A stretch of 64,000 nucleotides of DNA from an uncultured Chloroflexia bacterium (lineage in GTDB: Bacteria; Chloroflexota; Limnocylindria; Limnocylindrales; CSP1-4). Positions 57,892 through 60,898 of this stretch are shown one piece after another. The position numbers and the translations under genes were made by a program. How positions within the stretch are numbered: the stretch's first letter is position 1; each line of letters begins with the position of its first letter. The stretch spans positions 2,624,001-2,688,000 of the forward strand of contig OY970218.1 of NCBI GenBank assembly GCA_963713975.1, written 5' to 3'. The notes below the pieces were generated by a model that saw only the letters and a list, made by a program, of their open reading frames with translations, ran no database searches and was not told where the DNA came from.

Positions 57892-59001
57892 TCATGAGGT
57901 CGGGTTGGTGTCCTGTCCCGTCGGCACCGGGCTCGGGATCGGCGTCTGGTGGCGGCGGACCAGGCGGGCAAGCGAGCGCAGGCCTCCCGGCTCCTCGTCG
58001 AGGGTCGTGAGTCGCTCGGGATCCGGGAGTCGCTGGGCGGGGACATCCGTCGCCACCGCGGCAGCCTCGTCCGGGGCGAGCGGCCCACCGAGGTGCGTGG
58101 CCAGGAACCGGGCGATGGCGCCCCGGTAGACCGGGAACTCGTAGAGCCACGAGTGGCGTCCGTCAGGGACGATCAGCGTCTCGGTGACCGCCGTGGGTCG
58201 AGCCGCTCGCCTGGCCGCGGCCAGCCGGTGGAGGTCGCTCGCCGGCACGACCCCGTCCTCCGTCCCGTGGGCAAGGAGGACGGGCACATCGATGTCGCGC
58301 ACGGCGCGGGTCGCGCTGATCGAATCCACCGTATGGCCCCGCGGGCGGAGGTAGACGCGCACGGTCAGCCATGCAAGTGGCCAGGCGATGAACCCTGGGA
58401 TCGGAAGACGGGCAAGGCGGAATGTCTGGCGGGTGAGCCGCCACGGATCGGCCGGCGTGGAGACCGCGATCACCGCCGACACGTCCGGGTGGCCGACCGC
58501 GGCGACCAGCGAGCCGGCCGCACCCATGGAGTGACCGAGGATCGCCACGCGCGACACCTCTGGACGGTCCGCCAGCCAGGTCGCGGCCGCCTCGGCGTCC
58601 GCGGCGAACTCGCCCACGGAGAGGGGGAGTGTCTCCGGTCCATTGGCTCCGTGGCCGCGGACGTCGATCGTGAGCACGTGGAGGCCCACGGCGTGGAGCA
58701 CCTGGACGTGCCCGAGGGTGCGGTCACGGGCCGACTCCCAGCCGTGGACCAGCACGACACCCGGAGCCACGTCGGGGCCGGCCGGGATGTGCCAGCCCGG
58801 GAGTCGCAGGCCATCGGGCGTCGGGACGGTGACGTCCACCCAGTCCAGGCCGACTGCCGCCGGCGTCCACGCGGGCGGGTGGCGCTGCGGGTAACCGGCC
58901 CGCACCCGGTAGATCAGCGCGAACCGGTAGGCCAGAGCGAAGGGGATGGCCGCGACGGCGGCGGCGAGACCGGCTCGGCGAGCGCGGCGCATGGGTGGCA
59001 T
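57892..59001 (-). CDS. alpha/beta hydrolase with N-terminal TM
   Basis: HGW, DVRGHG, GHSMG, HGTEDGVV, GRH. Confidence 0.9.
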   Translation of the reverse strand: MPPMRRARRAGLAAAVAAIPFALAYRFALIYRVRAGYPQRHPPAWTPAAVGLDWVDVTVPTPDGLRLPGWHIPAGPDVAPGVVLVHGWESARDRTLGHVQVLHAVGLHVLTIDVRGHGANGPETLPLSVGEFAADAEAAATWLADRPEVSRVAILGHSMGAAGSLVAAVGHPDVSAVIAVSTPADPWRLTRQTFRLARLPIPGFIAWPLAWLTVRVYLRPRGHTVDSISATRAVRDIDVPVLLAHGTEDGVVPASDLHRLAAARRAARPTAVTETLIVPDGRHSWLYEFPVYRGAIARFLATHLGGPLAPDEAAAVATDVPAQRLPDPERLTTLDEEPGGLRSLARLVRRHQTPIPSPVPTGQDTNPTS

Positions 59002-59071
59002 GGCGCTATCGGACCCCGGGTCGCACCGGCTGTCAAGCGGGGGGGCCCGCGACGGGCGATACACTCGGACC

Positions 59072-59818
59072 GTGCCCCACAAGGACCCGCACACGGTGCT
59101 CGGCATCGAGCCCGGTGCTCCTCCCGACGAGATCAAGGCCGCCTGGCGCGCCCTCGCCCGCCGGCACCACCCGGACCTGATCGGCGACGACCCCGAGGTC
59201 GCCGGCCATGCGACGCGGCGCATGGCGGAGATCAATGCCGCCTATGCCGCCCTGACGCGGGCGGGCGAGACGATCGAGGCGCAGCGCTCCGGTCGCTCCG
59301 GGCGCACTACGACGGGCACCGGGACCAAGGGTGCGCCGGCCGGATCGGCCAGCCGCGGGGGCCCGCCACCGCCCCCCAGGACGCGACCGGTCACTGCCCG
59401 GGTCGACACGAGCAGCACCGTCCGACCGCGCAACCAGACCACCACACCGCCCGGGCTGCGGCTCCCGCTCTCGGGCCAGCCGCCACTCCGTCATGGCCGC
59501 TCCGCGCCGGACCTGAGGGCCTCGCAGCCGTCCGGGCCCATGGAGCGCGGTCGCCGCCATGGCCATGTAGTGCCCGAACCCCCGAGCCTGGAAGACGCGT
59601 TCGACGTGGAGGTCACGTTCGGGAAGTTCCACGGCCACACGCTCGGCCAGATCGCCGCCTTCGAGCCGTCGTACATCGACTGGCTCGCGGGAACCATGAC
59701 GCGCGAGCCGGACATTGCCATGGCCGCGCGGGTCATCGTCGGCGAGCTCGACAGGCGGGGCGTCCGGAGAGCCCATCGGCCGCAGCGTCCAGGGTGGCAG
59801 TCCAACCCGTTCCGCTGA
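59072..59818 (+). CDS. J-domain protein with C-terminal FGK-type (DUF3820-like) domain
   Basis: DPHTVLG...EIKAAWR...HHPD...EINAAY; C-terminal TFGKFHGHTLGQI...PSYIDWL. Confidence 0.85.
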   Translation: MPHKDPHTVLGIEPGAPPDEIKAAWRALARRHHPDLIGDDPEVAGHATRRMAEINAAYAALTRAGETIEAQRSGRSGRTTTGTGTKGAPAGSASRGGPPPPPRTRPVTARVDTSSTVRPRNQTTTPPGLRLPLSGQPPLRHGRSAPDLRASQPSGPMERGRRHGHVVPEPPSLEDAFDVEVTFGKFHGHTLGQIAAFEPSYIDWLAGTMTREPDIAMAARVIVGELDRRGVRRAHRPQRPGWQSNPFR

Positions 59819-59854
59819 GCTGAGCGGGCGGAGACGGCCGAGCGGCGCGAGCGG

Positions 59855-59892
59855 GAAACGAACGCACCCCCGGCGAGACTGCCGAGGGTGCG
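59855..59892 (-). terminator. intrinsic terminator (possibly bidirectional)
   Basis: Minus strand CGCACCCTCGGC-AGTCTC-GCCGGGGGTGCG then TTCGTTT. Confidence 0.75.
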
Positions 59893-60090
59893 GATAACGC
59901 CTGATGAGTGCAGCCGCCCGCCGGCTTCCAGGCCTGATGGCCGAGGTGCCCAGTTATTCGGCTCGTGACCGGTGGCGCGGTACCCCCGTGCCGTCGAGCG
60001 TCCCCGACGGCCGGGTTGTCCGGCCCTCCGGCCCGTGACCGACGCCCCAGGTGACTCCCGGATCGTCGCGGGTCGGCGCGTTTCGAACGC
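59855..60090 (-). ncRNA. candidate structured ncRNA (~235 nt), 6S/Ms1-like rod
   Basis: TTGAGC-N17-TACGGT promoter, extensive 5'/3' pairing, terminator hairpin with U-tract, no credible ORF. Confidence 0.6.
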
Positions 60091-60096
60091 ACGACA

Positions 60097-60125
60097 ACCG
60101 TACGAGGCTCCCGCCCGTTGCTCAA
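60097..60125 (-). promoter_or_regulatory. sigma70-type promoter of the candidate ncRNA
   Basis: -35 TTGAGC (60125-60120), 17-nt spacer, -10 TACGGT (60102-60097). Confidence 0.6.
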
Positions 60126-60286
60126 TGGGTCGCGTGTCCGGGCTCGACGGGGCGAAGGTCAGGCGCACAGGGGCACCGCCGGGACCATTTGGCCCGCGAC
60201 CAAGGGGACCATTGGCCCGCATAGGGAGTTTGCCCCATTGGCCCCTTCCGAGGCGGGAACGCCGGCCGGCCGGTACGCTCTCTGCG

Positions 60287-60898
60287 ATGGCCCCTCGACC
60301 TTCTGCCACCCGCCGCCTGGTGCTCGGGATCGCCGTGCTCGCGGCGATCACGCTGAGCCTCGTCGGCTGCACCGGGTCCGACGCGCCGATCCTGAGCTTC
60401 GACCCGGGGAGTCCCTGCACCACCAACGGCCAGCAGCCGGGAGCCTACCCGGAGCTCGAGGCCATGCTCCCGGATGCCTACGACGGTGAGGCGCCGTCCA
60501 ACGTGGATTCGGGCCGTACCTGCACGGCTGACGCGCTCGGCCCCCTCTCGGCGGCCGGCGTCGAGAACCTCCGGTTCGCCGGGGCCACCTGGAGGCTGGG
60601 CGGCACCTCGGGCGTGACGATGGCCGTGTTCGAAGCCGACGGTCTGGACCCGACCCTGATGCGCGAGTTCTACGCGACCGGTGCCGACGCAGCCCGGCGG
60701 ACCGAGAAGTCCGCCCTGTCGGACACGACGGTCGGTGGCGTGCCGGGCAAGCGGCTGGACGTCCTGGGCTCGGACGGCCTCGGCCAGACGGTGGTCGCAT
60801 GGCCGGCGGCCACGGATGGCCGCGTGTTCGTGCTGCTGGCCGCGGACCTGGGCGATGCCAAGGTGGCCGACATCCTCGAGACGTTCGGGTCGCGCTGA
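60287..60898 (+). CDS. hypothetical lipoprotein
   Basis: LSLVGC lipobox; TACGCT -10 box 7 nt upstream. Confidence 0.8.
   Translation: MAPRPSATRRLVLGIAVLAAITLSLVGCTGSDAPILSFDPGSPCTTNGQQPGAYPELEAMLPDAYDGEAPSNVDSGRTCTADALGPLSAAGVENLRFAGATWRLGGTSGVTMAVFEADGLDPTLMREFYATGADAARRTEKSALSDTTVGGVPGKRLDVLGSDGLGQTVVAWPAATDGRVFVLLAADLGDAKVADILETFGSR

Follow-up and report, generated by a model that had tools for sequence, protein, structure and literature searches.

Gene organization of the locus

In the window (the whole stretch of 64,000 nucleotides analysed here), a gap of about 470 bp separates the gene of a J-domain protein from a lipoprotein-like gene. The two neighbours are encoded on the plus strand, so that the RNA gene described here forms an opposite-strand unit within this gap. 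On the minus strand its elements follow one another in the order TTGAGC, a 17-nt spacer, TACGGT, a GC-rich stretch and a 12-bp hairpin (Table 1). Transcription is predicted to start at approximately 60090 (minus strand) and to end at approximately 59856, which would give a product of about 235 nt.

Table 1. Features of the RNA gene and its surroundings in the window.
Feature	Position	Strand	Evidence or remark
J-domain protein with ExoX-like C-terminal motif	58946-59818	+	Flanking gene
Lipoprotein-like gene	60287-60898	+	Flanking gene, followed by methylmalonyl-CoA mutase
Conserved upstream boxes	60151-60241	-	Seen in the sequence; related boxes kept across genera
Three direct CCAATGG(TCC)-like repeats	60241-60233, 60215-60206, 60192-60182	-	Seen in the sequence
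Box GGCGGTGCC	60180-60172	-	Seen in the sequence
Box GCGCCTGACCTTCGCC and inverted copy	60166-60151	-	Seen in the sequence
-35 hexamer TTGAGC	60120-60125	-	ATTG(A/C) kept in homologues; 17-18-nt spacer varies
-10 hexamer TACGGT (TANNNT type)	60097-60102	-	T1, A2 and T6 kept in the 30-sequence genus alignment
Conserved RNA core, 189 nt	59902-60090	-	R1 match end to end, 183.8 bits
P0, 5' hairpin (GCGU/ACGC)	60078-60090	-	Helix 1: double changes in 4/4 pairs, 88.1% of cells paired
P1, closing stem, 5' strand (pairs with 59913-59921)	60068-60077	-	G-C to A-U and A-U to G-C exchanges
H5, local hairpin (CCGGG, loop, CCUGG)	60047-60061	-	Minimum-free-energy fold; pair probabilities 0.98-0.99
Near-invariant 5' junction strand ACCUGGGGCGUCGGUCACGG	60033-60052	-	Invariant in 30 genus sequences; GGCGUCG kept family-wide
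P3, 5' strand; P4, 5' strand	60042-60038; 60035-60030	-	Within or at the 5' junction strand
Apical arm P5-P7 and terminal loop	59974-60025	-	Helices 8-11: double changes in 17/17 pairs
Near-invariant 3' junction strand UCACGAGCCGAAUAAC, with P4 and P3 3' strands	59953-59968	-	Genus and family alignments
H3, hairpin CGGCC-AUCA-GGCC, then UGG	59928-59943	-	Helix 12: 94.5% of cells paired
P1, closing stem, 3' strand	59913-59921	-	Consensus structure and covariation
Conserved single-stranded 3' tail UGCACUCAUCA	59902-59912	-	Family consensus GCAGCACUSAUCG
Intrinsic terminator	Stem 59892-59863 (12 bp, 10 G-C); tail TTCGTTTCCC 59862-59853	-	Terminator prediction

The initial annotation had placed a TTGAGC-N17-TACGGT promoter on the minus strand, and an alignment of 30 same-genus homologues bears this out: both hexamers are conserved while the spacer between them is free to vary. 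Past the promoter, conservation in this alignment sets in at the inferred start and ends with the terminator. A generic sigma-70 promoter scan returned no site for the RNA gene, because TACGGT agrees with TATAAT at just three of six positions. The 12-pair terminator stem with its U-tract was found as annotated. Downstream of the core, a strong hairpin (-21 to -38 kcal/mol) is present in 64 of 65 homologue loci, these hairpins being the picks of a script, of which some lie beyond the RNA's own terminator; the terminator stem sequences differ between genera. In many genera, a UUCAUGUCC-like word replaces a clean U-tract after the stem. No conserved reading frame was found in the RNA, as the homologue alignments carry indels of 1, 2 and 5 nt, in agreement with the reported lack of a credible ORF. 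The locus very probably holds a stand-alone, functional gene for a structured non-coding RNA with its own promoter and terminator.

Boxes related to those listed in Table 1 (GGTGC..GCGCCYGACCATCG, CACCTGGTACGG) occur upstream of the RNA promoter across genera, also at loci that have no lipoprotein gene. The array extends more than 100 bp upstream of the -35 hexamer. Within the genus it consists of CGATGGTC-like words, two in direct and one in inverted orientation; in other genera it reads CACCTGGTACGG..GGTGCG..GCGCCCGACCATCG, with a GGGAC word approximately 10 nt before the -35 hexamer. The boxes are probably protein-binding sites, and the array looks like a multi-site operator at which a regulator would control either the RNA or the divergent lipoprotein gene.

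Metatranscriptome coverage had been proposed as a check on transcription. Two freshwater metatranscriptome studies contain short contigs (151-170 nt, some with adapter remnants) from relatives, which cover only 59913-60082. In runs X1 and X2 small shares of the stretch were covered, with four contigs on the RNA body only. Because the contigs come from relatives, the bare flanks are uninformative, and the contigs are a weak hint of expression of the RNA and no proof of transcription. Two adapter-bearing contigs from different studies start within about 2 nt of each other, immediately ahead of the closing stem and in the 3' half of hairpin P0 (window 59953, 60052-60082). The shared start may point to processing of the RNA, or it may have arisen during library preparation.

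Secondary structure and covariation

Folding of the minus strand of 59855-60095 gave a free energy of -134 kcal/mol (z = -4.0), which was reached by none of 200 shuffled sequences. The plus-strand fold of the same stretch was weaker (z = -2.09). Using RNAalifold on the 30 genus sequences, 61 pairs were predicted, 15 of them with compensatory changes. The minus-strand RNA is favoured because many of the pairs are G-U, which on the other strand become C-A mismatches.

A covariance model (R1) was built from the 189-nt core, and 28 diverse sequences from the whole family were aligned to it. In the 47 consensus pairs 91.8% of cells were paired, compared with 25-46% when the partners were slid by one to three columns. 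Double changes occurred in 36 of the 47 pairs, and in 500 shuffles the observed values were never reached; the alignment, being fitted to R1, favours the structure, and the margin is large even so. Covariation among homologues, the lack of which would have spoken against the initial annotation, is thus present. The supported helices are the 5' hairpin, the closing stem, P3 (UCGGY/GCCGA), P4, the apical arm and the hairpin GGCC-NNNN-GGCC. The predicted fold has a closing stem of 11-14 bp, the 5' hairpin, a junction with two short hairpins and a long irregular apical arm. Sequence and length of the apical arm vary by genus while its pairing is retained. Selection on pairing, evident from the G-U pairs and the compensation, shows that the RNA product is constrained.

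Several of the helices drawn from the single sequence were recovered in the family alignment. Compensatory changes were found in the closing stem GCCGACCCGC/GCGGGCGGC and in the helix CGGGCCGG/CCGGTCACG, and all eight pairs of the apical CCGTCG...CGACGG hairpin show double changes. The hairpin GGCCGG-ACAAC-CCGGCC, once considered as an alternative to the latter, is absent from the consensus. The helix CTGGGGCGTC/GGGCACCTCGG lacks support, as its 5' strand is invariant and no consistent partner appeared in the inspected family alignment. The 3' strand of P3 is followed by an unpaired GUAAC-type motif, which reads AUAAC in the window copy. UCAUC-like words recur in the window (59893-59912) and in many homologues; the tail contains one as ACUSAUC, and another stands directly ahead of the terminator.

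Closed and rod forms of the central junction

The word CCGGG (60061-60057) has two candidate partners, a local CCUGG, with which it forms hairpin H5, and a distal CCUGG at 59932-59928, with which it would form helix P2. For H5, 82.4% of cells are paired (+1 slide) and there is no covariation. For P2, which corresponds to the annotated helix TCCGGG/CCTGGA, the paired share is 81.6%, three pairs have one double change each and this paired share is reached by 12 of 500 shuffles; the support is weak, and the helix competes with the local hairpin. In addition, the CCUGG partner of P2 and the 3' arm of hairpin H3 overlap by two bases (the last two C).

In the case of the window RNA, the energy minimum of -105.9 kcal/mol belongs to the closed form, which contains H5 and H3. 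Forcing the P2 rod gave -101.2 kcal/mol, i.e. 4.7 kcal/mol worse, and the equilibrium probability of P2 was about 0.001. As the P2 rod is disfavoured energetically, a four-way junction is the predicted form of the free RNA. This is in line with the earlier remark that the classical large bubble of 6S RNA could not be seen.

Around this junction lie the most conserved bases, ACCUGGGGCGUCGGYCACGG to one side of it and YCACGAGCCGAGUAAC to the other. The junction words GGGGCGUCGG on one strand and CGAGUAAC on the other are the most conserved part of the RNA family-wide, while the helices drift with compensation. Such invariant bases would be more readily expected of a specific site for tertiary contacts or protein recognition than of a generic mimic of an open promoter. 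For the invariant CCUGG we also considered the variable CCANGG-type word that follows GUAAC as a partner; this pairing was inconsistent in the inspected family alignment.

Distribution of the RNA

By BLAST, 35 of 36 other genomes of the same genus carry the RNA stretch, with 74-90% identity. R1 detected the RNA in 79 of 108 family genomes and in 18 of 27 sampled genera, as a rule full-length and in single copy. With R2, a 69-position model made for the 3' segment at family level, it was found in 42 of 44 sampled family genomes (E <= 6.5e-4). The genera of the family missed by R1 have divergent copies at the same site, which scored 14-31 bits with filters off and still show the core words, with changes that compensate each other such as CGAC/GUCG for CGGC/GCCG. 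In the bins G013, G031 and G172, two full-length copies were found on different contigs, which may reflect mixed strains or true duplication.

Outside the family, R1 gave no match in any of 42 genomes of the streamlined sister family (f2) in the order sample. The same was true for the class sample of 106 genomes from other families (f2, 0/6; f46, 0/49; f3, 0/50; f47, 0/1); the class genomes counted include seven flagged as unpublished. The best R2 scores outside the family were at most 30.9 bits, which is noise level; second-best chance matches within family genomes reached 31.1 and 31.0 bits. A class-wide search for the pattern GRGGCRTCGR-N55-100-CGAGYAAC yielded only chance-looking matches outside the family. 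This pattern is too loose and yet misses the window copy, which reads CGAATAAC. Among viral contigs, a 19-mer core word matched two, in both cases within a protein-coding gene; R1 found none, the flanking genes of the window were absent, and the two contigs provide no evidence for a phage origin of the RNA.

With high confidence, the RNA constitutes a new family that is specific to one family of the Limnocylindrales. This assignment follows from its own promoter and terminator, the strong covariation, its single-copy occurrence in one bacterial family and the lack of an Rfam match described below. In the literature searched, no non-coding RNA is described for this group.

Gene neighbourhood and relocation of the RNA gene

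An orthologue of the J-domain gene is present throughout the order, and in 59 of 65 loci this gene stands tail to tail with the RNA. The protein has a proline-rich middle part (RPVTARVDTS..RPRN), an EPPRASxPTGPL word and the ExoX-like motif FGKFHGHTLGxIAAFEPSYIDW. It was full-length in all 44 family genomes and the six sister-family genomes sampled, while the rest of the class gave only generic J-domain matches. In the sister family (L203-L208, genomes of 1.0-1.4 Mb), the J-domain and lipoprotein genes abut or overlap on one strand without a gap (6/6), and none of these six loci has the RNA gene at the orthologous site. A gap of about 470 bp bearing the RNA in the window's family thus stands against the absence of any intergenic region in the sister family.

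The remaining 6 of the 65 loci hold the RNA away from the J-domain gene, and the RNA is therefore not tied to this gene. Three of these six adjoin an SSB gene with an RsmI-like gene close by, and a fourth adjoins a tRNA gene. At locus L201 (genome G104), in part of one genus, the J-domain, lipoprotein and mutase genes are contiguous and lack the RNA. In related genomes (L077-L080, L089, L103) the RNA lies elsewhere, beside the SSB and RsmI-like genes or a tRNA. Taken together, the contiguous genes without the RNA and its presence elsewhere in relatives indicate that the RNA gene moved as a unit. In one family member, a 6C-RNA-like match (RF01066; L191:2698-2768, minus strand) of 44.3 bits, under the 47-bit cut-off, overlaps an sX13-like match about 1 kb from the RNA.

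Comparison with catalogued RNA families

At the Rfam gathering score, only two tRNAs were found in the whole window. With E <= 10 on 59700-60400 there was one match, a chance match to M23 at E = 2.8, and no match to 6S. When all 4227 Rfam families were searched with E <= 5 against 19 diverse homologue loci, no family matched the RNA. Hence the Rfam comparison proposed earlier for 6S and Ms1 gave no match and the novelty of the RNA stands.

The search for a 6S RNA in the whole genome (RF00013; cut-off for membership 46.4 bits) gave no match at E <= 10, whereas control genomes gave matches. SRP RNA of the large type, RNase P RNA and tmRNA were all found in this genome. Rfam 6S was also not detected in the order (0/151 genomes), in the sampled members of the class or, at E <= 10, in the sister family (0/5 genomes). 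In the phylum, 34 of 151 genomes had a match. A 6S-type role is therefore unfilled here, which counts in favour of a 6S/Ms1 analogue; it is nevertheless a weak argument, because the other 117 of 151 Chloroflexota genomes are likewise without Rfam 6S. R1 did not match any of ten canonical Chloroflexota 6S loci, and these ten loci share no flanking genes with the window, so that positional orthology was rejected as well. A divergent ancient 6S RNA is disfavoured, since an orthologue with such conserved core words should show in sister families. The main points against it are the restriction of the RNA to one family, a ground state that is closed and junction bases that do not vary.

Discussion

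The reading of this locus as either a 6S/Ms1 analogue or a new sRNA family can now be divided. Covariation, occurrence in one bacterial family and the lack of an Rfam match support the new family. For the 6S/Ms1 analogue no model match was obtained, and it stays a hypothesis. Single-copy structured RNAs of about 200 nt that are universal in a lineage and have invariant junction bases are rare and usually are cores of ribonucleoproteins or global regulators. The central part of 6S RNA is a large, mostly open bubble resembling an open promoter; 6S RNA associates with the sigma-A holoenzyme and serves as template for short product RNAs. In Actinobacteria, Ms1 RNA associates with the core of RNA polymerase. 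We tentatively propose that the RNA described here works in trans, its junction being the site at which a protein binds; by analogy with 6S and Ms1, RNA polymerase is the foremost specific candidate for that protein. The RNA would be transcribed from TTGAGC-N17-TACGGT near 60090 (minus strand) and terminated near 59856. On the enzyme, the CCGGG word would leave the local hairpin H5 and pair with the distal CCUGG to form P2, which would open a bubble of about 16 x 17-28 nt. The hairpin H3 (GGCC...GGCC) could then serve as a release hairpin, because it overlaps the P2 helix by two bases. In evolutionary terms, the class Limnocylindria would be without a recognisable 6S RNA, and one of its families would have invented its own RNA-polymerase-binding RNA independently of 6S and Ms1, with a closed junction that opens on the enzyme and a built-in release hairpin; we offer this scenario as a speculative one.

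Alternatively, the RNA may bind another protein or join a ribonucleoprotein through the bases of the four-way junction, RNA polymerase not being involved, a possibility that we hold equally tentatively. The closed junction is the predicted ground state, no part of the RNA is better conserved across the family than the junction words, whereas the helices drift with compensation, and confinement to one family would suit a lineage-specific partner. On the other hand, no partner is indicated and no known protein-binding motif was recognised in the RNA; the neighbouring J-domain gene occurs also in the sister family, which lacks the RNA, and the RNA lies away from it in six of 65 loci. A base-pairing regulatory sRNA appears rather unlikely. 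Its seed would be the 3' tail (GCAGCACUSAUCG, with a second UCAUC-like word) or a conserved loop, and the fold would serve to stabilise it. The predicted fold leaves the tail unpaired, its sequence is shared by different genera, and the RNA has its own promoter and the type of terminator common among trans-acting sRNAs. However, a seed carrier needs far less than some 190 nt of covarying structure in which internal-loop bases are invariant, and UCAUC is too short to specify a target.

Two further explanations refer to the neighbouring genes. Transcription convergent with the J-domain gene could interfere with or insulate the neighbours, the RNA itself being less important. The tail-to-tail arrangement in most loci and the abutting J-domain and lipoprotein genes of the sister family would agree with this. 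It is improbable in view of the selection on pairing with its G-U pairs and compensatory changes, which constrains the RNA product, and of those genomes in which the RNA has moved and retained its structure; moreover, the strong terminator halts transcription ahead of the J-domain gene. Still less credible is a riboswitch-like sensor, in which the closing stem would control the terminator and hence read-through antisense to the J-domain gene. A stem-closed multi-helix junction with a terminator about 20-50 nt downstream has the appropriate layout, but the next downstream gene is on the opposite strand and no same-strand gene follows. Duplexes between the pre-terminator segment and the 5' arm of the terminator were no better than shuffles (mean z = -0.19; 3/65 below -1.64), and no riboswitch family was matched in the Rfam scans.

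The RNA marks an abundant uncultured group of soil and freshwater. Should its partner be RNA polymerase, the regulatory problem addressed by 6S and Ms1 would have been solved independently for a third time, which would help to explain why 6S searches fail in much of the Chloroflexota. With another partner, it would represent a new class of RNA whose consensus is already well defined. Whichever applies, the RNA can be annotated in genomes of the family by means of the alignment and models.

With 6S RNA, for which a size of about 150-200 nt is typical, it shares a single-copy core of about 190 nt whose 5' and 3' parts form a closing stem and whose apical arm is long and irregular. Its central region, too, can be represented as a bubble, and it sits in a lineage without detectable Rfam 6S. 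In the Rfam consensus of 6S, the 3' strand of the bubble contains a hairpin CCUG..CAGG whose last GG is common to the flanking GGUUCA helix; the two-base overlap between H3 and P2 has the same geometry. Unlike 6S, it gives no model match, has other conserved words and a predicted closed four-way junction as ground state, carries an extra 5' hairpin, a single-stranded tail and its own terminator, and is restricted to one family.

PMC9130861 describes Ms1 as folding like 6S but with a further short hairpin at either end, and as encoded next to a HAD-IB hydrolase ('inhibition of morphological differentiation') and an oxidoreductase. The paired ends, the central region, the extra 5' hairpin and the terminator hairpin of the RNA resemble that description, and both RNAs are restricted to a lineage and difficult to detect by homology search. 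The Ms1 neighbours were absent from the RNA loci, which are flanked by J-domain/ExoX-like_C, lipoprotein-like and methylmalonyl-CoA mutase genes. Scans of all 4227 Rfam families at the locus and at the 19 homologue loci gave no Ms1-type match, the inclusion of Ms1 in Rfam being taken from PMC9130861. The actinobacterial framing of the initial annotation does not hold: the host belongs to the Chloroflexota (Candidatus Limnocylindrales), the Ms1 neighbourhood is absent and the SRP RNA is of the large type. The RNA is also shorter, about 235 nt compared with about 300 nt for Ms1.

The raiA-motif and OLE RNAs are large structured orphan RNAs of bacteria which we take to be comparable. The RNA described here differs from them in that it has no Rfam match, occurs in other hosts and is bounded by its own promoter and terminator. 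It resembles them as a well-covarying multi-helix RNA of about 200 nt with invariant junction bases and an as yet unassigned biochemical function.
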